NCBI RefSeq assembly: GCF_000023965.1
Contig: NC_013202.1
Span: 270,001-302,000, forward strand
Direction: 5' to 3'
Source of the DNA: Halomicrobium mukohataei DSM 12286
GTDB lineage: Archaea; Halobacteriota; Halobacteria; Halobacteriales; Haloarculaceae
Length of the DNA stretch: 32,000 nucleotides
The stretch's first letter is position 1; each line of letters opens with the position of its first letter. Below are positions 2,724-18,426 of this stretch, in pieces. The notes under the pieces were generated by a model. That model was not told the origin of the DNA. It worked only from the letters and a program-made list of their open reading frames with translations, and made no database searches. A program made the position numbers and the translations under genes.

Positions 2724-3614
2724 ATGCGCGTCGTCACGCTGCTGCCGTCGGCGACCGAGATCGTCTACGCGCTCGGCGTCGAGCCGGTCGGCGTCTCCCA
2801 CGAGTGCGACTATCCCCCGGCGGCCAGCGAGCAGCCGTCGGTGAACCGCTCGCGGGTCGATCCGACGGCCGCGAGCGGCGAGATCAACGAGCAGGTCGCC
2901 GCCGCCGAGGAGGAAGGCGTCTACGCCATCGAACGAGAGACCCTGGCGTCGCTCGATCCCGACCTGATCGTCACGCAGGGCGTCTGTGACGTGTGCGCCG
3001 TCGACCACGTCGTCGTCGAAGACGCGGTCGCGGAACTCGGTCTCGACGCGGAGGTGCTGACGCTCGACGTACACTCCCTCGACGACCTCTTCGAGTCGAT
3101 CCAGCGCATCGGAGACGTACTCGGCCGTGGCGAGCGGGCGAGCGAGCTGGTCGGCGACTTGCGCTCGCGGGTGGCCGAGGTCGAGACGACGGCCGGGCGA
3201 GCCGAGTCGACGCCGAGCGTCGCCGTCCTCGACTGGACGGAGCCGGTCATGGTCGCCGGCCACTGGGTGCCCGAGATGGTCGCCAGCGCCGGTGGCGAGT
3301 ACGGGCTGGAGTCGGCAGGCGCACACTCCCGACCGCGCGAGTGGGACGAGATCAGGGCGTACGATCCGGAGCGACTGATCGTCTCGCCCTGCGGGTTCGA
3401 CCTGGCACAGATCCGCGAAAATCTCACGGACCTGACCGAGCGGCCGGGGTGGGCAGAGCTGTCGGCAGTCCGGAACGGGCACGTCACGCTCGTCGACGGC
3501 CACCACTACGTCAACCGGTCGGGACCGCGCCTCGTCGACACGCTGGAGTTCCTCGGCTGGGCGATCCACCCAGATCCGTTCGATCGACCGCCGAGAGACG
3601 CCGTCAGTCGCTGA
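2724..3614 (+). CDS. BtuF/FhuD-like (type 2 periplasmic-binding-protein fold) substrate-binding protein, no signal peptide
   Basis: 296 aa. RVVTLLPSATEIVYALG, DPDLIV and WTEPVMVAGHWVPEMV blocks are typical of cobalamin/siderophore-binding proteins. The N-terminus starts directly in the first beta strand, so there is no Sec/Tat/lipobox signal. Confidence 0.7.
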   Translation: MRVVTLLPSATEIVYALGVEPVGVSHECDYPPAASEQPSVNRSRVDPTAASGEINEQVAAAEEEGVYAIERETLASLDPDLIVTQGVCDVCAVDHVVVEDAVAELGLDAEVLTLDVHSLDDLFESIQRIGDVLGRGERASELVGDLRSRVAEVETTAGRAESTPSVAVLDWTEPVMVAGHWVPEMVASAGGEYGLESAGAHSRPREWDEIRAYDPERLIVSPCGFDLAQIRENLTDLTERPGWAELSAVRNGHVTLVDGHHYVNRSGPRLVDTLEFLGWAIHPDPFDRPPRDAVSR

Positions 3615-5653: not shown

Positions 5654-7178
5654 TGTTACTATAGCAGTCGTACAGGTCACGGTACTTCGACTCGGCGTAT
5701 TCGAGGAAGTAGTCGGCGGTGAAGGGCTCGCCGGTCGCTTCCTCGATGAGGTCGTCGGTCTCGTAGCGTGCGCCGTGGCTGTGGACGTTGTCCGTGAGCC
5801 ACTCGTGGAGGTCGTCGAACTCGCCGTCGCGGAGCTGTCCGTCCAGATCGCCGATGTCGTCTTCGGCGGCGGCGAACAGTTGTGCGGCGAGCACCGACCC
5901 CAGGGAGTACGTCGGGAAGTAGCCGAAGGAGCCGTGGCTCCAGTGGATGTCCTGTAGGCACCCCTCGGCGTCGGTCTCGGGCCGGACTCCGAGGTACTCC
6001 TCCATCTTGTCGTTCCAGACCTGCGGTACCTCGCTCACGTCGAGGTCGCCGTGGATCAGGTCCCGCTCGATCTCGAAGCGCAGGACGATGTGCATGTGGT
6101 AGGTCAGTTCGTCGGCCTCGACGCGGATGCAGTTGTCCGGGTGGACCGTGTTGGCCGCCTCGTAGTACTCTCGGGGCGTGGCCGACGTGGCGAGGTGGTC
6201 CTCGACAGTCGGGGCAAAGCCCTCCCAGAACGGCCGGGAACGCCCGACGTGGTTCTCCCAGAGTCGGGACTGGGACTCGTGGACCGAGAGGTCTCGAGAC
6301 TCGCCCAGCGGCGTCCCGTAGTGTTCGTCGGGGAGCCCGAGCGTGTACGTCGCGTGGCCGAACTCGTGGATGGTCGAACTGAGCGCACCCAGCGGATCCT
6401 CGGGATCGAACCGCGTGGTCACGCGGGCGTCGAACTGCGTCCCGGTCGAGAAGGGATGTGGCGCAGTGTCGAGTCGCCCGCGGTCCCAGTCGTAGCCCAG
6501 GTAGTCAAGCGCCGACCGAACGAGGTCCTCCTGTGACGCCTCGTCGTAGCTGCCACCGGCGAAGGGGTCGGCCAGCGTCACGTCGCTGTCTTTGATGTCG
6601 TCGATCAGCGGGACGAGCGTGTCGCGGAGGTCTTCGAGTGCCGCTTCGGCGGTGTCGAGCCCGAGGTACGGTTCGTACTCCTCGAACAGGACCGCGTAGG
6701 GGTCTCGGTCGGGATCGATCGCCTCGGCGTACTCGCGCTTGAGCTGGACCAGCTCTTCGAGCGTGTCGGCGTAGATCTCGAAGTCGTCCTCGGCCTTGGC
6801 TTCCTTCCAGACCGGCAGCGCGTTCGAGGTGGCCTCCGAGATGCGCTGGACGAGGTCGCTGGGCACCTTCGCGGCGCGGTCGTGCTGGCGGCGAATCTCG
6901 CGGACGACCGCTTCCCGCTCGGGATCGAGGTCCGATCCCTCCAGTTCGTCCAGCCACTCGGCCACGTCGTCGTCGGTCAGGAGGTCGTGCGAGAGCGTCG
7001 ACAGCGCCGCCGACTGCTTCGAGCGGGCGGGTGTCCCCTCGTCGGGCATCATCACTTCCTGATCCCACTGGAGGACACCGGCGGCGTCGCCGACGTAGGT
7101 CAGCTGCTCGACGTGAGCGCGGAACTGCTCGTAGGTGTCGGGCGTCTCTGCGTCGTCAGCGTCGGCTTCCGTTGCCAT
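5649..7178 (-). CDS. M32 family carboxypeptidase (carboxypeptidase Taq-like)
   Basis: 509 aa. HEFGHATY zinc motif, HESQSRLWEN and IRVEADELTY blocks diagnostic of peptidase family M32. Confidence 0.9.
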   Translation of the reverse strand: MATEADADDAETPDTYEQFRAHVEQLTYVGDAAGVLQWDQEVMMPDEGTPARSKQSAALSTLSHDLLTDDDVAEWLDELEGSDLDPEREAVVREIRRQHDRAAKVPSDLVQRISEATSNALPVWKEAKAEDDFEIYADTLEELVQLKREYAEAIDPDRDPYAVLFEEYEPYLGLDTAEAALEDLRDTLVPLIDDIKDSDVTLADPFAGGSYDEASQEDLVRSALDYLGYDWDRGRLDTAPHPFSTGTQFDARVTTRFDPEDPLGALSSTIHEFGHATYTLGLPDEHYGTPLGESRDLSVHESQSRLWENHVGRSRPFWEGFAPTVEDHLATSATPREYYEAANTVHPDNCIRVEADELTYHMHIVLRFEIERDLIHGDLDVSEVPQVWNDKMEEYLGVRPETDAEGCLQDIHWSHGSFGYFPTYSLGSVLAAQLFAAAEDDIGDLDGQLRDGEFDDLHEWLTDNVHSHGARYETDDLIEEATGEPFTADYFLEYAESKYRDLYDCYSNN

Positions 7179-7256
7179 GCAACTGTGTTACAACGGCCGT
7201 CGTATAATCCCCGCGACGAGGGAAAGATTCACAGCCTCTCTGGTCGGGCCGTCGGT

Positions 7257-7643
7257 ATGGAACGCGAGACCGTCGATAGCGGCACTGAGTGGGAAGCCGA
7301 AGTGGGCTACTCTCGCGCCGTTCGCGTCGGCGACCGAATCGAGGTGTCGGGGACGACCGCCACCGACGAGGCGGGCGGGGTCGTCGGCGTCGGCGATCCG
7401 TACGCACAGGCAGCGAAGGCGATCGAGAACATCGAGACGGCGCTGGAGACCGCCGGAGCGGGGCTCGAAGACGTGGTCAGGACGCGCATGTTCGTCACGG
7501 AGATCGAGAACTACGAGGCCGTCGGTCGTGCCCACCGCGAGGCGTTCGGCGACGTGCGGCCGGCGACGAGCATGTACGAGATCGAGCGCCTCGTCGATCC
7601 GGACCTGCTCGTCGAGGTCGAAGCGGTCGCGATCAGCGAGTGA
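7257..7643 (+). CDS. RidA/YjgF/UK114 family protein
   Basis: 128 aa from the internal ATG 7257 of track ORF 6882..7643. The sequence before that ATG is a shadow of the carboxypeptidase gene. Typical size and blocks (GDRIEVSGTTA, RTRMFVTEIENYEAVGRAHREAFG, C-terminal LVEVEAVA). Confidence 0.8.
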   Translation: MERETVDSGTEWEAEVGYSRAVRVGDRIEVSGTTATDEAGGVVGVGDPYAQAAKAIENIETALETAGAGLEDVVRTRMFVTEIENYEAVGRAHREAFGDVRPATSMYEIERLVDPDLLVEVEAVAISE

Positions 7644-7738
7644 ACGCGCCGGCCACGTGACGACGACCCGAGCGAAGCGAGCCCCCTCGACGGCGGTGTC
7701 GGTCCCCCAGTTTCACGACCGATAACGAGGGAGGGAGT
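7606..7738 (+). repeat. left direct repeat (att-like) of the AT-rich insertion
   Basis: 7606-7728 equals 9966-10088 except for two substitutions (7625 g/9985 c, 7651 g/10011 a). Degenerate similarity continues about 10 nt further. It contains the last 12 codons and TGA of the RidA gene plus about 85-95 nt of non-coding DNA. Confidence 0.9.
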
Positions 7739-8046
7739 CGTGGGAAATATCGATTCTGTGTATGGTTTTTGAGTGATGCCTGCTGATACATTTGATGACG
7801 CCAGCAGGATCAATGAGATCTGCTGAGCAAGTTCATTGGGGCGAATTACCGCTTGGCTGTCTACAGTTCTATCCCAGCCGTAAGTCTACTGAGGAACGTT
7901 CGAAAGCAGAAGCGAAATACCGCGCAGAACGGATTGATATCTGCCCATTTGAGCCCCATCGTCTTCCAACATCTATTTCTAGTAGATTAAAATATTTCCA
8001 ACTATTCGATACATGTATATGTGTCCACTATTTATGATCATTTGTA

Positions 8047-9162
8047 ATGGCAGATAGTAATAGTGTGAATGAGGTTGACATAGATAAGCGTGAACTATTA
8101 AAGGCCATTGGATCAGTGGGTGCAACCGGTGGATTCCTATCATCCACCGCATCAGCAGGACAAATCGAAGAAGAAGAGGTTGATCTGGATGAGTTTGCAA
8201 CAAAACCAATATATGAGTTAGCTATTGACGTGATTGAGCATCCTAAACACTCAATGCTGGCTTTCACCACGTCAGTGATTGATGAAAGCCTTGGACTTTA
8301 CATCGCCACGGGTGTGTCTAAGCCAAAGAATTCCTATCTCCCTCGAGAGGGTACCCCACCAGGTCGGCGTGCCACGGAGGTAATCAAAGTAGCGGAAGCC
8401 AAGACTGGCGCTATAATGCAACTCGAATGGCACAGCAAGACCGAAATTAGCTACTGGGAAGCTGGTGAGATAATTGCCACTGATGTTTCAGATATAACCA
8501 ATAAATTAGATACCGGAAATAATGGGCGGCGGTCACACAGGAACAATTCCAAAGGCCCATCGGTGGAAATCCAGTCCCAGCCTTCGGATCGAAAAAAGAG
8601 AGTTGTGAGTAAGCAGACTGCTCCAGACTCTCTCCAAGGTATTATCGAAACACAATCCGAAACACCATCTACTGAAATAACTACGCAACAGTTTGATCCA
8701 TCCCGCTGTAACATTCCAAAGCTACCACAGGTCGGTATTGAAGAGTGTCAGGATGCTGGTGCATTCGGTGAGTTTTGTGCAAAAACTACCTCAATAGGCT
8801 GCATGAGAAAGCAATGCTCATGGGGCAAGACACCACCGCTACTTTCAGTCCCTGTGACGATTGCTGAAGGAAATGTTGGTGATGGAAAGGTTTATATTGA
8901 CATGTGGGCTGGATTGGAGATCACAGATTCAGGAAAATATTGCGTTTGGCTAGGCAGTGAAGCTGCTGGCGTTTGCGTGACGGATTGCTACCGAGACCGT
9001 CCTGATACGGCTGAAGCAACTAAGCTTGCAGAAGATTTCGTTCCTGAAATAGATCTTTTTGGGGCCGCCAAATTTGTCGGTGAAGTGATTGTCACTCTGA
9101 TAGCACTAATTATACTTGCTATCGTTGCAGCGGCGGCAGGGATAACCGGTGTAGGTGCATAG
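8047..9162 (+). CDS. secreted, C-terminally anchored Cys-rich protein with a Tat-like (KR) signal, function unknown
   Basis: 371 aa. N-terminus DIDKRELLKAIGSVGATGGFLSSTASA|GQ resembles a twin-arginine signal with KR and an AxA cleavage site. A polar linker follows. All 8 Cys lie in residues 221-314 (nt 8707-8988). C-terminal hydrophobic helix VIVTLIALIILAIVAAAAGITGVGA. It is the only long ORF on either strand in this region. Confidence 0.7.
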   Translation: MADSNSVNEVDIDKRELLKAIGSVGATGGFLSSTASAGQIEEEEVDLDEFATKPIYELAIDVIEHPKHSMLAFTTSVIDESLGLYIATGVSKPKNSYLPREGTPPGRRATEVIKVAEAKTGAIMQLEWHSKTEISYWEAGEIIATDVSDITNKLDTGNNGRRSHRNNSKGPSVEIQSQPSDRKKRVVSKQTAPDSLQGIIETQSETPSTEITTQQFDPSRCNIPKLPQVGIEECQDAGAFGEFCAKTTSIGCMRKQCSWGKTPPLLSVPVTIAEGNVGDGKVYIDMWAGLEITDSGKYCVWLGSEAAGVCVTDCYRDRPDTAEATKLAEDFVPEIDLFGAAKFVGEVIVTLIALIILAIVAAAAGITGVGA

Positions 9163-9221
9163 AGAACAAAGACAATATTATTGATCGCAGATCAAACAAC
9201 CATATATCACATTCCAGAATA

Positions 9222-9584
9222 ATGAGAAAGCTCCTGCTGCTCGCTTTTGCGCATATTGTAATTATAGCAACGATTTGGTTCCCGGAAAATTTTCTAAGTG
9301 ATGTATTTCAAACTTGGCTGGTGATCGTGGGCTTCACTATTTGCCCAGTTTTAATTTCGGCTATTCTGTGGAATCTGGGTCGAACTGAATGGAAATTCGC
9401 CCGTTCAAAAATTCACCCCCCCATCGTTTTACTTGTACTTACTGCTATGATTAATGGAGTTTCTCTTCTAATTACCGTGTCTCGGATAATTGAATTGGTG
9501 ATTCTTCTCGCTATTCTTCTTTCACTTCTTGCTGAAGCACGAGGTCTTTTTTATGCTTATAAGCAACTGTCGAGGAGGGGTTGA
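9222..9584 (+). CDS. small polytopic membrane protein (about 4 TM helices), function unknown
   Basis: 120 aa with four hydrophobic segments (LLLLAFAHIVIIATIWF, WLVIVGFTICPVLISAILW, PPIVLLVLTAMINGVSLLITV, LVILLAILLSLLA). Same strand as the Cys-rich protein gene and 59 nt downstream of it. AT-rich codon usage. Confidence 0.6.
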   Translation: MRKLLLLAFAHIVIIATIWFPENFLSDVFQTWLVIVGFTICPVLISAILWNLGRTEWKFARSKIHPPIVLLVLTAMINGVSLLITVSRIIELVILLAILLSLLAEARGLFYAYKQLSRRG

Positions 9585-9775
9585 TTACGATTAGGGACAT
9601 TCGACTTCCACTCAGCATGGTCCTGGCCCTCGCCTTCGTCATGCTCGCCCCAGTCGTTCTCACCGCCACAGTCTACGGGATTGCGCTGGCTGCTCTGGGG
9701 GAACCACTCCTCGCCGGAGCTGTCGCACTCGTCTGTCGTGCCATGCTCCTCATACTGCCGGCTGTACCTTCGTGA
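9581..9775 (+). CDS. possible small membrane protein whose 3' end runs into a MITE-like element
   Basis: 64 codons. TTG start overlaps the TGA of the preceding ORF (alternative ATG at 9617). Two hydrophobic helices. GC content is host-like. The stop TGA at 9773-9775 lies inside repeat copy 2. Confidence 0.3.
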   Translation: MITIRDIRLPLSMVLALAFVMLAPVVLTATVYGIALAALGEPLLAGAVALVCRAMLLILPAVPS

Positions 9776-9830
9776 AGATCTTCGCCACCCCGGGGTGGCG
9801 AAATCGCTCACAGATTTACAGCCGGTAGTA
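9753..9830 (-). mobile_element. MITE-like palindromic element, family 1 (78 bp), copy 2 (inverted)
   Basis: Its reverse complement differs from copy 3 at only 2 of 78 positions. Flanked by direct TCA (9750-9752) and TCA (9831-9833). Confidence 0.7.
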
Positions 9831-9965
9831 TCAGTACGGAACTCCTGTTCGGCGAGCACTTCTTCGAACGAATTTCGGACGACTCAGACCGAAGAAGAGA
9901 CGACGAACAGCTGGCACAGGTCATCCAGCACTTCTCTCAGCAACGGGGTATCGCTCCGCCGACGT

Positions 9966-10098
9966 TGCTCGTCGAGGTCGAAGCCGTCGCGATCAGCGAG
10001 TGAACGCGCCAGCCACGTGACGACGACCCGAGCGAAGCGAGCCCCCTCGACGGCGGTGTCGGTCCCCCAGTTTCACGACCGATAACGAAGGGGGCAGT
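9966..10098 (+). repeat. right direct repeat (att-like) of the AT-rich insertion
   Basis: Duplicate of 7606-7738 (see the left repeat). It carries an orphan copy of the RidA C-terminal codons and TGA (10001-10003). Confidence 0.9.
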
Positions 10099-10129
10099 AC
10101 TATAACTGTTCATCTGATTGGTACTAGGC

Positions 10130-11911
10130 ATGGCACCGCGTCACACAGGCACCTCGCAACTGCTCCACGTCGGCGAGCGCGAGACGTTGCTTCGGGAGGC
10201 GAGCGGCGCAGTCGACGCCGGAGGAGGCGACGTGGCGGTGACGACCGTCGACAGTATCGAGGCGGCCGACGAGCGGATCGACCGCGGGAACGTCGACTGC
10301 GTCGTCTACGAACACGGTGCCAGCGGAGAGGAACCGGAGTCGCTCCGGAAACTGGCCGATCGAGCGAGCGCGACTCCCTGGCTGTTCCTGACGAGCGACG
10401 AGACGGCCGTCGACGACGCCTTGCGGGCCGGTGCGAGCGACGTGGTCGTCCTGCGTGAAAACACCGACCGACGGCTGCTGTCTCGGCGACTGGAACATAT
10501 CCTCGCCAGACAGCGCCTCGGCGAGAGCGAAACTGGAGCAACGTCGACGATGACCGAAGCGCTGCGATCAGACCGAGCCGCGACGGATCTGCTGCTCGAT
10601 ACGCTCGACGACGTGTTCTACCTCGTCGGCACCGACGGGACGCTCGAACGGTGGAACGAGAGTCTCAAGACCGTCACCGGCTACTCGGACGCGGAGCTGG
10701 CGGAGATGAACGCGATCGCTCTCTTCGAGGAGTCGGACCGAAGGCGGGTCGACGAGGCCGTCGCCGAGACGCTCGAAACCGGATCGTCGAGCGTCGAGGC
10801 GTCGTTCGTGACCACGGACGGAGAGACGATCCCCTACGAGTTCACCGGTGCGAGACTCGCCGACGACGGCGACGTGCGCGGGCTCGTCGGAATCGGACGC
10901 GACATCTCGGAGCGCAAGGCCCTCGAAGCGGAACTCCGACGGAAAGCGAGCCTGCTGGACCACATCTTCAACCAGGTGCCGACCGCGCTGTACGTCAAGG
11001 ACACCGAGGCCCGTCACGTCCGGATGAGCGAGTTCCACTCCGACGCCGAGGGAACCCTTGGGAAGACGGACCCGGAGATCTACGGAGAGACGGAGTACAC
11101 CGAGTCGACGTACGCCGACGACATGCGGGTCATCGAGGAGGGCGATCGGATCATCAACCAGGAGGAGTTCAATCCCAGAACCGGCGAGTGGTCGCTCACG
11201 TCGAAGGTCCCCTGGCGAACGGAGGACGGCGAGATCCAGGGGCTGATCGGCGTCACCCGCCTCATCACGGAGAAAAAGGAGTACGAACAGAAGCTGAACC
11301 TCCGGAACCGGGCGATAGCGGAGGCACCGATCGGAATCACGATCCACGACGCGATGGAACCACCGGGCCGAATCGTCTACGCGAACGACAGCTTCCAGTC
11401 GCTGACGGGCTACGACGAGCCGGCGCTCGACGGGGAGGACCTCACGATACTGGCCGGTGCGGAGACGGAGCCCGGCCAGCTCGATCGACTCGACACCGCG
11501 TTCCACGACAGCGAGTCGAGGTCGCTCGTCGCACTCCTCTACCGGCGGGACGGAACGCCGTTCTGGGGCCGGATCACCGTCGCTCCAGTGACCGACGACG
11601 ACGAGGTGACGCACTTCGTCGGGTTCCTCCAGGACGTGACGGAGACCAAAGAGCGGGCAGAAGAGATCGAGCGACGACTCGACGAGTTCGGCGAACTCAT
11701 CGCAGAGGAGCTACGGACACCGTTAGAGCGTGCCGAGCAGTCCGTCGCGGCGATCGCCGACCCCAGTCAGCAGGCTGCCGTCGAGAACGCAGTCGAGTCG
11801 ATTCGGCGGGCCGACAAGCTCGTCGACGACCTGGCGGCGGTCCACTCGTTCTCGGTCAAGTCACGCGACGTGTTCGAGACGGCGTCGACGAGCCAGAGCG
11901 AGGACCGATGA
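10130..11911 (+). CDS. receiver-like / triple PAS (third is LOV-like) / degenerate HisKA signalling protein without an ATPase domain
   Basis: 593 aa from ATG 10130 (the track starts at TTG 10118). N-terminal CheY-like region. PAS blocks around LLDTLDDVFYLVGTDGTLERWNESL and LLDHIFNQVPTALYVKD. A LOV-like block IVYANDSFQSLTGYDE...RRDGTPFWGRITVAPV...FVGFLQDVTETKE. The C-terminus has FGELIAEELRTPLERAE where an H-box would be. No HATPase_c follows. Confidence 0.75.
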   Translation: MAPRHTGTSQLLHVGERETLLREASGAVDAGGGDVAVTTVDSIEAADERIDRGNVDCVVYEHGASGEEPESLRKLADRASATPWLFLTSDETAVDDALRAGASDVVVLRENTDRRLLSRRLEHILARQRLGESETGATSTMTEALRSDRAATDLLLDTLDDVFYLVGTDGTLERWNESLKTVTGYSDAELAEMNAIALFEESDRRRVDEAVAETLETGSSSVEASFVTTDGETIPYEFTGARLADDGDVRGLVGIGRDISERKALEAELRRKASLLDHIFNQVPTALYVKDTEARHVRMSEFHSDAEGTLGKTDPEIYGETEYTESTYADDMRVIEEGDRIINQEEFNPRTGEWSLTSKVPWRTEDGEIQGLIGVTRLITEKKEYEQKLNLRNRAIAEAPIGITIHDAMEPPGRIVYANDSFQSLTGYDEPALDGEDLTILAGAETEPGQLDRLDTAFHDSESRSLVALLYRRDGTPFWGRITVAPVTDDDEVTHFVGFLQDVTETKERAEEIERRLDEFGELIAEELRTPLERAEQSVAAIADPSQQAAVENAVESIRRADKLVDDLAAVHSFSVKSRDVFETASTSQSEDR

Positions 11912-16555: not shown

Positions 16556-16752
16556 CGACAGCGCGCGACCCCCCAACCGTGCTCGTATCGCCGCTGTGTT
16601 CGGGCAGACCGTTCGACTGTCTCGACGCGCGCCGAGGCGACCGGTCCGAGGCCGGTCGCCGGGCCAGCGCTGTCGGTCTCAATCATGCTGTACACCCAGA
16701 GATAGAGCATGAAAAACGTTGTTAGACCGGCCCCGGACGAGCGGCGGTTTCA

Positions 16753-16830
16753 TACTACCGGCTGTAAATCTGTGAACGATTTCGCCACCCCGGGGTGGCG
16801 AAGATCTTCACGAAGTTACAGCCGGCAGTA
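16753..16830 (+). mobile_element. MITE-like palindromic element, family 1 (78 bp), copy 3
   Basis: TACTACCGGCTGTAA...TTCGCCACCCCGGGGTGGCGAA...TTACAGCCGGCAGTA. Flanked by direct TCA (16750-16752) and TCA (16831-16833). The latter is the stop codon (TGA) of the gamma-glutamyltransferase gene. Confidence 0.7.
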
Positions 16831-18426
16831 TCAGAACCCGACGCTACTCCCGTCCTTGCGTGGTTCGGTCGCGCCAGACAGCGTCCCGTCGGGCTCGCGG
16901 CGCGCGATCTGGCCGCCACCGAACTGTCGGGGCGGGAGGACGGCCACGTCGTGTTCCCGTCGGGCGAGGTCGGCACCGATCTCGCCGGCCAGCCGTTCCT
17001 CCAGCGCGAGGCGGCCGTCCTCCATGTAGCGCCAGCGCGGCGCGTCGAAGGCCCGCTGGAGGGGCATCTCGTCGTCGATGAGGTTGCTGAGGACCTGGAC
17101 GTGGCCCTGCGGTTGCATGTATCCGCCCATGACGCCGAAGGCCGCCCAGTCCTCGTCGTCGAGTTCGACGAGGCCGGGGATCAGCGTGTGGAACGGCTTC
17201 TTGCCCGGTTCGAGCGTGTTGGGGTGGTCCGGATCGAGCGAGAACGACGCGCCGCGGTTCTGGAGGACGATCCCCGTGTCGGGGACGACGACGCCGCTGC
17301 CGAAGCCGTTGTACAGCGAGTTGATGAACGAGACGACGTTGCCCGCCTCGTCGGCGACGGTCAGCAAGACCGTGTCGCTGTCCTCGTCGGGGAGACCCGG
17401 CCCGCCGACGCTGACCTCGCCAGCGGTCTCGTCGACCGTCGCCGCCCGCTCGCTCGCGTACGCTGGATCGTGAAGATCCGGAACGGACTCGAAGTCGGGG
17501 TCGGTGATGTAGTGGTGGCCGTCGTGGAAGGCCCGCTTCATCGCCTCGGCGAAGTAGTGGACGCGCTCGGGCGAGCCCGCGGGGTGGTCGCCAGCGCCCA
17601 GCTCCGCGGCGACGTTGAGCGCCTCCAGCGCGATCAGGCCCTGGTTGTTCGGCGGCAGCTCGTAGACGGTCGCGCCGCCGTAGGTCGTCGAGACGGGATC
17701 GACCACGTCGGGGGTAAAGCCCGCGAGGTCGTCGGCCGAGAGGAGACCGCCCTCGGCCTGGACGGCCTGGCCGATCCGCTCGGCGATCGCCCCCTCGTAG
17801 AAGGCGTCGGCTCCCTCGCGGGCGACGGTCTCGAACGTCTCGCCCAGCCCCGGCAGCGTGACGGTCTGGCCCACGTCCGGTGCCTCGCCGCCGGGCAGGT
17901 ACGCCTCGCGGCCGGCGTCGCTGACGAACCGCTGGGCACAGGCGGCCCACGCGTCGGCGATGATCTCGCTGACCGGGTACCCCTCGGTCGCGTACTCGAT
18001 GGCCGGCTGGAGCACGTCGCCGAGCGCGAGCCGACCGTGCGCTTCGACGGTGTGCTCCCAGCCCCGCGCCGCGCCCGGAACCGTGATCGCCAGCGGGCCG
18101 AAGTCTGGCATCTCGCCGTCGTCGACGCGGTCCCGGACGGCCTCGCGTGTCGCGCGCTGGGGTGCGCCGCCACAGCTCCGGAGCGCGCCCACCTCGCCGT
18201 CGGCCGTGCGATACAGCGCGAACGCGTCCCCGCCGATACCGGTGCTCATGGGCTCGACGACGTTCAGCGCCGCCGCCGTGGCGACGGCCGCGTCGAAGGC
18301 GTTACCGCCCTCGCGGAGGAGTCTGACGCCGGCCTGTGCGGCCAGTGGCTGGCTCGTCGAGACGACGCCGCGGTTCGCGTAGACGGTAGAACGGCGCGAG
18401 TCGAACCGATCGAGGTCTGGATCCAT
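16831..18426 (-). CDS. ggt: gamma-glutamyltransferase
   Basis: 531 aa from ATG 18426 (the track TTG is at 18453). Blocks GGNAFDAAVA, PMSTGIGGDAF, DSDTVLLTVADEAGNVVSFINSLY and FGVMGGYMQPQGHVQVL match the GGT family. Confidence 0.88.
   Translation of the reverse strand: MDPDLDRFDSRRSTVYANRGVVSTSQPLAAQAGVRLLREGGNAFDAAVATAAALNVVEPMSTGIGGDAFALYRTADGEVGALRSCGGAPQRATREAVRDRVDDGEMPDFGPLAITVPGAARGWEHTVEAHGRLALGDVLQPAIEYATEGYPVSEIIADAWAACAQRFVSDAGREAYLPGGEAPDVGQTVTLPGLGETFETVAREGADAFYEGAIAERIGQAVQAEGGLLSADDLAGFTPDVVDPVSTTYGGATVYELPPNNQGLIALEALNVAAELGAGDHPAGSPERVHYFAEAMKRAFHDGHHYITDPDFESVPDLHDPAYASERAATVDETAGEVSVGGPGLPDEDSDTVLLTVADEAGNVVSFINSLYNGFGSGVVVPDTGIVLQNRGASFSLDPDHPNTLEPGKKPFHTLIPGLVELDDEDWAAFGVMGGYMQPQGHVQVLSNLIDDEMPLQRAFDAPRWRYMEDGRLALEERLAGEIGADLARREHDVAVLPPRQFGGGQIARREPDGTLSGATEPRKDGSSVGF

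Follow-up and report, generated by a model that had tools for sequence, protein, structure and literature searches.

A rare two-module haloarchaeal protein family with a Tat-type signal, a cysteine-rich domain and a hydrophobic C-terminus, encoded in low-GC mobile cassettes

The haloarchaeon Halomicrobium mukohataei DSM 12286 carries, within the 32,000-nucleotide (nt) stretch of DNA analyzed here (contig NC_013202.1, positions 270,001 to 302,000; hereafter “the window”), a small islet of low guanine-plus-cytosine (GC) content whose principal gene encodes a protein of 371 amino acids (aa). Judged by its sequence, this gene belongs to a rare and previously undescribed family, built from two unrelated modules, N and C, and all members with a named source are haloarchaeal. 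The 371-aa gene sits in a horizontally acquired cassette of low GC content, in the company of genes for a small polytopic membrane protein and for an M48 protease, the latter gene being dead in this genome. We propose, as the probable course of events, that the N- and C-modules associate, are exported through the twin-arginine translocation (Tat) pathway, acquire disulfides and place a hydrophobic end in a membrane. For the purpose served by such a protein we offer a more tentative answer: by analogy with the halocin precursor ProC8, the genomic context mildly favors an antagonism cassette.

The 371-aa gene occupies window positions 8047-9162 on the forward strand, as do the other window features described below unless stated otherwise, and its definition draws on the open reading frame (ORF), its relatives, the ratio of nonsynonymous to synonymous substitution rates (dN/dS) and an AlphaFold2 (AF2) model. 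The translated protein starts MADSNSVNEVDIDKRELLKAIGSVGATGGFLSSTASAGQ. An earlier, sequence-only reading of this DNA had described a Tat-like signal with KR in place of RR, an acidic N-terminal domain, a polar linker, eight cysteines confined to residues 221-314 and an uncharged hydrophobic C-terminus, all of which are borne out by translation, isoelectric point (pI) and Kyte-Doolittle hydropathy. Residues 1-37 (8047-8157) make up the Tat-type signal peptide: the N-terminus reads MADSNSVNEVDIDKRELLKAIGSVGATGGFLSSTASA, then GQ, with KR in DKRELLKAIG, a hydrophobic (h) region and ASA preceding the G. The N-module domain (residues 45-195; 8179-8631), delimited by the family alignment and the AF2 model, is beta-rich and contains the motifs AFTT, LYIATGV and W...YW..G. 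The N-domain has an acidic pI of 4.6; the linker at residues 156-220, with a pI of 10.0, is basic and polar. The same alignment and model place the C-module ectodomain at residues 221-335 (8707-9051), with the motifs TPP, WxG and CxWxGxE and an amphipathic helix at 321-335; the eight cysteines, at residues 221, 234, 244, 252, 257, 299, 310 and 314, are the only ones in the protein. The sole Kyte-Doolittle hydrophobic segment is C-terminal (averaging centers at residues 344-362). It falls in a Gly/Ala-rich hydrophobic C-terminus (residues 343-371; 9073-9159; hydropathy, alignment, AF2) that is uncharged past E346, the last charged residue, and ends ...AAKFVGEVIVTLIALIILAIVAAAAGITGVGA. This single C-terminal helix, present in both hydropathy and the AF2 model (342-366), is atypical in being without a basic tail, and may be either a membrane anchor or a membrane-inserting segment.

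Searches of curated libraries (Pfam, NCBIfam, PHROGs and PADLOC) returned nothing for the 371-aa protein or for the neighboring 120-aa membrane protein. Extended to neighboring genes and to all 23 proteins of the family, they were likewise uninformative on the two modules and the small membrane proteins. A word-indexed search of 5.8e9 proteins found only the 371-aa protein itself and its orthologue in Halomicrobium sp. HM KBTZ05, and the profile version of that search only three proteins. Searching 1.84e9 cluster representatives exhaustively with phmmer recovered, at E≤1e-3, 22 true relatives of 22-36% identity and one repeat-protein false positive; the relatives together with the window protein form the set of 23 members used throughout, none of which matched Pfam at E≤0.01, metal-binding domains included. 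The named sources, all haloarchaea, are Halalkalicoccus tibetensis, Haloferax sp. AB510, Halorussus sp., Haladaptatus sp. DYSN1 and Halomicrobium, and the remaining relatives come from metagenome assemblies. The sequence-only reading had recognized no known family in its three ORFs; this holds for the curated libraries and the first two proteins, but an uncharacterized family does exist, and the third ORF turned out to be a piece of an M48 gene. Four scans of IMG/VR (three with alignment-derived patterns, one with a hand-made degenerate DNA pattern) found no family member, the single pattern match not being one; a scan of GTDB genomes with the pattern CxWxGxE...C...C gave 17 matches, among which only Halomicrobium katesii was a family member; and a scan of JGI metagenomes gave only one contig, already among the known loci.

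The N-module consists of a Tat-type signal and a beta-rich domain of ~150 aa marked by AFTT, LY[IV]ATG and W...YW..G. The C-module consists of a ~110-aa domain with six conserved cysteines, a short amphipathic helix and an uncharged Gly/Ala-rich hydrophobic end, 25-46 residues long. Its motifs run in the order C234, C244, C257, TPP, W287xG289, C299xWxG303xE, C310 and C314; C257, G289, G303, C310 and G368 are invariant in the family alignment, and C234, C244, P263, W287, C299 and C314 are at least 90% conserved. The 371-aa protein carries the defining motifs of both modules. An origin of the two modules by internal duplication was rejected (hhalign probability 0.1). With the 23-sequence family alignment, AF2 produced a model of mean predicted local distance difference test score (pLDDT) 72, reaching 87-95 in the N-domain and 80-90 in the C-domain, as against 32 with two sequences only; the model includes a confident isolated strand at residues 184-189 (pLDDT 87). 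Foldseek searches of PDB and BFVD with the whole two-domain model, rather than single domains, as query gave a best E of 8e-3 at template modeling (TM) scores of at most 0.19, and a sequence profile search of PDB found no match. The modeled fold thus appears to be without detectable relatives in PDB or BFVD.

Six of the eight cysteines (C234, C244, C257, C299, C310 and C314) are conserved in the family, and C221 and C252 form an extra, lineage-specific pair. The number of cysteines in the C-module is even in all 23 members (4, 6 or 8), and in the member P0008 both C299 and C314 are missing. Gain and loss in pairs is the pattern expected of disulfides and does not sit easily with a metal site; outside the cell, the C-module cysteines are probably joined in three or four disulfides. 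The low-complexity segment at residues 157-183 (NNGRRSHRNNSKGPSVEIQSQPSDRKK; 8515-8595) is an insertion confined to Halomicrobium. Its KKR sequence was considered as a conserved processing site and rejected, because an insertion limited to one genus makes the dibasic “processing site” no feature of the family.

The Tat motif x-R-x-[FL]-L-K-x-x-G is present in 16 of 16 N-module proteins, with RR in eight, KR in seven and ER in one. The window protein, with D-K-R-E-L-L-K, an h-region and ASA followed by G, fails the strict twin-arginine rule (S/T-R-R-x-F-L-K); given the survey, its KR is a variant typical of the family and not an accident. Signals for archaeosortase of the PGF-CTERM type (PGF, PEF, VPXXXP, basic cluster) were not found at the C-terminus of the 371-aa protein, and NCBIfam gave no match. 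The anatomy first read from a single sequence, a Tat-type signal, a disulfide-type cysteine domain and a C-terminal hydrophobic segment, is strengthened by the family survey.

The two modules occur both fused and split. Members of about 315-371 aa hold both in one chain. In a paralogous H. mukohataei locus (L008; loci of the family are given L numbers here) they are separate adjacent genes of 160 aa (N) and 166 aa (C), translationally coupled by a TAATG overlap of stop and start codon, and the same arrangement is found in Haloferax (L011; N 142 aa, C 172 aa); the N-modules of both loci have RR signals. In Haladaptatus (L012) and Halorussus (L033), the N-module forms the last ~110 residues of LamG-like (SO2946-like_C) repeat proteins of 860 and 1176 aa, and the C-module gene lies 12-13 nt after the giant Tat-signal gene. 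Signal peptides are absent from the C-modules of all split loci examined. The cargo of Tat is folded proteins and complexes. The gene fusions argue for both modules acting together and on the same side of the membrane, suggesting that the signal-less C-modules hitch-hike on their N-module partners via Tat. C-terminally anchored Tat substrates are known in Haloferax (PMC3387779). In the model that we consider probable, the N- and C-modules would fold and bind each other in the cytoplasm, both would be exported together by Tat, a separately encoded C-module hitch-hiking, and the hydrophobic tail would sit in, or insert into, a membrane.

Several gene starts in these loci deserve comment. Public annotations start a number of N-module genes downstream of the Tat RR motif (L012, 5300-5410; L033, ~2160-2460; L011, ~3050-3100). 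In the giant L012 and L033 proteins the Tat motif is encoded in frame ahead of the annotated start, and in L012 no ATG, GTG or TTG occurs between the upstream stop codon and the RR motif. The Haloferax C-module (L011, 3529-3535) probably starts at the ATG of TAATG, 6 nt before the annotated GTG.

The islet (~7739-9580) has a GC content of 0.44-0.50 against 0.65-0.70 in its flanks and 67% in the chromosome, and GC at third codon positions is 0.38 in the 371-aa gene and 0.35 in the 120-aa gene, with 0.72 in the adjacent RidA gene. The 371-aa gene and its KBTZ05 orthologue, at 86% aa identity, have a dN/dS of 0.17, and the 120-aa gene and its orthologue, at 76%, one of 0.48; both are real coding genes rather than chance ORFs. 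The 371-aa protein is found, identical, in assemblies GCA_009217585.1 and GCA_003992375.1 and in reads of another strain, and H. katesii DSM 19301 also has the gene.

Directly 3' of the 371-aa gene lies the gene for a basic protein of 120 aa (9222-9584; pI 10.3). The ORF, hydropathy and the KBTZ05 orthologue agree on four hydrophobic segments, as the four-helix description in the sequence-only reading had it. This protein is a candidate partner or immunity protein of the 371-aa protein. The third ORF of that reading, a possible 64-aa two-helix protein (9581-9775), did not survive comparison with KBTZ05 (L001). In this sister genome the corresponding 121-aa gene is followed, with overlapping stop and start codons, by a full-length gene for a 329-aa M48 metalloprotease (PF01435, E 6e-30; HExxH present as AHECAH). 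Positions 9581-9749 of the window align, base by base, with codons 1-57 of the KBTZ05 M48 gene, and codons 58 to ~106 resume at 9831-9977 beyond an 81-bp palindromic insertion (9750-9830, assigned to no strand) that resembles a miniature inverted-repeat transposable element (MITE) and was delimited by repeat search and KBTZ05 alignment. The stop codon of the “64-aa ORF” comes from this insertion, and the remnant (9581-9977), besides being split, ends before the AHECAH part. Given the alignment, the insertion and the missing HExxH, the 64-aa ORF, whose GC content of 0.60 is host-like, is the N-terminal stump of an M48 pseudogene and not a gene.

Similar settings recur wherever the family was examined. 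All ten loci examined are low-GC islets (GC 0.33-0.59) in hosts of GC 0.60-0.72, and in nine of the ten, L074 being the exception, small polytopic membrane genes lie beside the family gene. The products of these genes have 120 and 121 aa and four helices in the window and KBTZ05, 111 aa and four helices in Halalkalicoccus (L006), 160 aa in L008 (with a further one of 105 aa on the opposite strand), 87 aa in L012, 96 aa in L014, 273 aa in L011, 81 aa in L035, 159 aa in L033, 145 aa in L034, and 125 and 136 aa, both four-helix, in L072. The proteins of different loci are mostly non-homologous, with two exceptions. The proteins encoded after the two closest long forms (36% identity), of 120 aa in the window and of 111 aa in Halalkalicoccus, are marginally similar, with a match over 39 residues (BLASTP E 0.001) whose score is reached in 3 of 2000 composition-preserving shuffles (p 0.0015). 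Apart from this neighbor and the KBTZ05 orthologue, the small membrane proteins of the other loci show no significant similarity to the 120-aa protein. The absence of any conserved pairing, which would have spoken against a functional link between the 371-aa gene and a small membrane gene, was thus not what we found. The second exception, observed in L008 (10568-11050), L033 (6593-7072, reverse strand) and L034 (6839-7276), is a separate small family with two transmembrane helices, a ~70-aa soluble domain and the motif I-I-x-Y-x-[KE]-D-G-[ES], which is found alongside split-type cassettes and matches neither Pfam nor PHROGs.

Peptidase genes also recur. An M48 gene lies beside the cassette in three loci, KBTZ05, Halorussus (L033) and a metagenome contig (L034), a recurrence with a chance probability of the order of 1e-3 by a rough estimate that assumes ~5 M48 genes among ~3500. 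Elsewhere, a cassette on a 334-kb replicon has ArdC and TnpB genes as neighbors, and integrase fragments, Fic/antitoxin genes and insertion sequence (IS) elements also occur near family genes. On a metagenome contig (L072, 1664-2107, reverse strand), a 147-aa Peptidase_C39_2-like gene accompanies two four-helix genes in the islet of a long-form member. In Halalkalicoccus tibetensis (L006, 9041-9844, reverse strand), the long form is divergent from a gene, of intermediate GC content, for a FilR1/HVO_A0261-type transcription regulator; this is a possible dedicated regulator, absent from the window.

In ProC8, a Tat precursor, the N-terminal HalI is the immunity protein and the cysteine-rich hydrophobic C-terminal 76 residues are the toxin (PMC3387779). 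By analogy, the cysteine-rich, membrane-active C-module would be an effector, the N-module a carrier or neutralizing partner, and the small membrane protein would protect the producer, with the M48 protease in a processing or quality-control role. We count in favor of such an antagonism cassette the adjoining small membrane genes, the recurrent peptidases, the mobile and patchy distribution and the presence of two cassettes in one genome, together with a disulfide-locked domain and a Gly/Ala-rich end of variable length without stop-transfer charge. The earlier suggestion of a halocin-like precursor with a cognate immunity protein is a candidate reading: context and mobility fit a bacteriocin-like cassette, and the searches gave no homology to halocins. 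The halocin C8 model TIGR04449 (NCBIfam, E≤1) does not match the 371-aa protein, and PF22862 (Hac8_like_N, Pfam) matches neither it (E≤1) nor any of the 23 members (E≤0.01), so membership in halocin C8 is excluded. None of the 22 phmmer relatives is H4-like, all having N and/or C modules, a result that assumes the presence of the 359-aa Tat-signal H4 in the library, there being no curated H4 model.

Further observations weigh against antagonism. No homology ties any member to killing or immunity, and neither halR-type regulators nor ABC (ATP-binding cassette) transporters of the halT1-3 kind are found near the gene in the window or the related loci. There is no sign of protein release or of cleavage between the modules, the KKR linker being lineage-specific. 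Small membrane proteins of different subfamilies show no detectable homology, and L074 has no such gene. The Halomicrobium M48 gene has host-like GC; the protease is evidently not essential, since the genome of the window no longer has it, although purifying selection still acts on the 371-aa gene. The KR and ER signals would fail TatFind, and the fused forms could use Sec. Lastly, the fusion of N-modules to giant LamG-like proteins fits a plain docking or surface anchor at least as well.

This last point leads to the strongest rival, which we regard as possible but somewhat doubtful: that the pair is non-toxic, the C-module being a disulfide-stabilized membrane anchor and the N-module its docking domain, the two together tethering Tat-exported surface proteins such as adhesins or lectin-like LamG repeat proteins to the membrane. 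The fused 371-aa form would then act by itself at the surface, perhaps as a receptor, as a decoy or as a superinfection-exclusion factor carried by a mobile element. The Haladaptatus and Halorussus loci, where the N-module ends the giant Tat-signal proteins and the membrane-bearing C-module gene is directly next, speak for this explanation; the L008 paralogue lies in an accessory (“moron”) region after a pleolipovirus NTPase gene, where exclusion genes are expected; and the purifying selection shows no sign of an arms race. A plain anchor, on the other hand, leaves the recurrent small membrane and peptidase genes unexplained and makes the fused form an anchor without payload. Nor does the C-terminus, whose length varies from 25 to 46 residues, have the basic tail usual for stable type I anchors.

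Anchoring and antagonism could also be combined, although we think this rather unlikely, in a two-component “membrane-anchored halocin”. A disulfide-locked, membrane-inserting C-module would leave the cell by Tat hitch-hiking on its N-module partner, would be displayed on the producer membrane, on vesicles or on pleolipovirus-like particles, and would kill neighbors on touching or fusing with them. Protection of the producer would fall to the small membrane protein encoded next to it, perhaps with help from the M48 protease, and proviruses and plasmids would spread the cassette as an addiction or competition module.

Another explanation takes the 371-aa protein for a spike or fusion protein and the 120-aa protein for an internal membrane protein, both remnants of a membrane-containing virus, pleolipovirus-like or of another kind. 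Some VP4-like spikes have Tat signals (PMC3384331), the layout beside a four-helix protein of about 120-135 aa mirrors VP4/VP3, all islets are of low GC, and a second cassette is associated with viral genes. In the same genome as the window, L008 (7646-12998; ~1.44 Mb in CP045142) is a pleolipovirus provirus remnant containing a split N/C cassette. The remnant has a phrog_5952 match (E 1e-107; pleolipovirus ORF6/7 type) and a VP8-type NTPase (nucleoside triphosphatase) gene of 55% identity to HHPV-1 and Humcor2; the cassette comes directly after these two genes, and a homologue of HfxHg1_080 (Halfgib1) lies on the far side. Rep, VP3 and VP4 are missing from the remnant, and the cassette, with AT-rich (GC 0.29-0.36) small membrane genes, sits in the position of the variable accessory region of pleolipovirus genomes, not in the VP3-VP4 structural block.

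The viral remnant explanation, which the sequence-only reading had also put forward, we judge improbable. No pleolipovirus gene is found in the 32-kb window, and the viral genes of L008 recur neither there nor in the other cassette loci. Searches with tblastn of 50,697 phage and archaeal-virus genomes gave no match to the N-module, the C-module or the 120-aa protein at E≤1; hidden Markov models (HMMs) of the two modules matched no ORF of HHPV-1, Halfgib1 or Humcor2; and the similarity of the 120-aa protein to VP3 is not significant. The PHROGs, PDB, BFVD and IMG/VR searches described above were likewise empty, and the Foldseek comparison showed no significant match to spikes, solved structures of which are in PDB. 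The gene order is reversed relative to VP3-VP4, a spike is about twice as large as the 371-aa protein, and purifying selection has conserved the latter in two diverged genomes. Pleolipovirus C-anchored proteins end in basic tails (...RxxxERVA), which the N/C-module family is without. Because of the accessory position, the missing tail and the absence of viral matches, the family looks like cargo able to ride pleolipovirus-like elements and not like a recognized virion protein. Sencilo et al. (2012, PMC3384331) located a pleolipovirus-like proviral region 2 of DSM 12286 at 912,487-926,019. In CP045142, the sequence of the sister strain, the 371-aa gene has position 937,299; the islet may lie ~10 kb from that provirus.

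It is very improbable that the protein is a Tat-exported cofactor protein whose cysteines bind a metal or Fe-S cluster in membrane-anchored redox chemistry or metal handling. Tat substrates often hold cofactors and six conserved cysteines share one small domain, but the strict pairing of cysteine gain and loss speaks against this, as do the absence of CxxC or CxxCxxC spacing, of redox partner genes nearby and of any Pfam metal-binding domain in the family. Haloarchaea, moreover, use Tat for most secreted proteins, with or without cofactor (PMC3387779). That the genes are non-functional leftovers of an old insertion is scarcely credible: the M48 pseudogene, the rearranged locus and the MITE-like insertion all suggest decay, but a 371-codon ORF persists in 46% GC DNA with a dN/dS of 0.17 against an 86%-identical orthologue, its protein is identical in several Halomicrobium assemblies and the family motifs are conserved.

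Upstream of the 371-aa gene lies an AT-rich region (7739-8046; GC 0.43) with 52% global identity to the corresponding KBTZ05 region. Its sequence includes a TATA-like GTATATG, some 32 to 26 nt ahead of the ATG (-32 to -26), as a putative promoter element. An 81-aa ORF at 7792-8037 is not conserved in KBTZ05. The islet contains no tRNA and no sizeable opposite-strand gene, and an Rfam scan of window positions 7000-10600 gave no match.

The islet is bordered by a direct repeat of 133 nt (96% identity). The left copy (7606-7738), at the left edge of the islet, consists of the last 38 nt of the intact RidA gene (7257-7643) and 95 nt downstream; the right copy (9966-10098), found by repeat search and alignment, forms the right edge of the rearranged region and is fused to M48 codon ~106 at a 9-nt microhomology, TCGTCGAGG (9969-9977). 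The gene order is M32, islet, M48, a 176-aa gene, RidA and PAS in KBTZ05, and M32, RidA, islet, M48 stump, RidA 3' end and PAS in the window. The repeat was considered as an att site and rejected, there being no tRNA and no integrase in the islet, a microhomology junction, and a sister islet on the opposite side of RidA. Given that junction and that position in KBTZ05, the repeat is the scar of a multi-step rearrangement and not of site-specific integration. The MITE-like element that interrupts the M48 remnant is a near-perfect palindrome of ~81 bp with a hairpin free energy (dG) of about -50 kcal/mol. The window contains three copies (469-552, 9750-9830 and 16752-16831) of 89-97% identity, and a related copy is found in KBTZ05 (L001, 20926-20980).

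If the antagonism reading is true, the family would be a fourth, unrelated and modular halocin class and would widen the view of archaeal antagonism, three halocin precursors being known at the sequence level. Independently of that function, the natural pair of fused and split forms predicts Tat hitch-hiking of a membrane-anchor subunit in archaea. As a compact marker of low-GC mobile cargo, the family also connects islets in chromosomes with plasmids and with pleolipovirus remnants, and the recognition of a dead M48 gene in the “64-aa membrane ORF” corrects an annotation trap.

Among known systems, the dead neighbor is to be compared with the HtpX-like M48 membrane metalloproteases. The window stump is orthologous to codons 1 to ~106 of the 329-aa KBTZ05 protein, itself 31% identical to the M48 protease beside the Halorussus cassette; unlike these proteases, the window copy is truncated before HExxH and interrupted. 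With the VP4-like spike and VP3 of pleolipoviruses the cassette shares its general layout: a signal, sometimes of Tat type, precedes an ectodomain and a helix, a membrane segment closes the C-terminus, and a small four-helix membrane protein is encoded alongside. The 371-aa protein has, however, about half the length of a spike and neither a basic cytoplasmic tail nor a long coiled coil, and its gene stands in the window in an order opposite to VP3-VP4, without viral core genes.

The E. coli hydrogenase-2 proteins HybO and HybC form a complex that is exported by Tat hitch-hiking. The N/C family resembles such complexes, and the C-anchored Tat substrates of Haloferax volcanii, in its N-terminal Tat-type motif, its single C-terminal hydrophobic helix and the adjacency of a signal-less partner gene. 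It differs in that the signal-less partner carries the anchor, that no cofactor or redox evidence accompanies it and that the first Arg is often Lys. The sulfolobicins SulA and SulB are encoded by two adjacent genes, both of them needed, and their products are associated with membranes or vesicles and not freely soluble (PMC3387779). They belong to another phylum and carry Sec signals, and none of the 22 relatives points to a sequence relation with them, making the comparison one of analogy only.

The closest parallel to the proposed antagonism cassette is ProC8. The C-module, at ~150 aa with 6 cysteines, differs from HalC8, at 76 aa with 10 cysteines, and has a terminal hydrophobic segment; halR, halU and halT neighbors are lacking, and the modules also occur as separate genes. 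The likeness lies in a haloarchaeal Tat precursor of accessory, patchy distribution that joins an N-domain to a hydrophobic, cysteine-rich C-terminal part with an even number of cysteines, one gene encoding two interacting parts.

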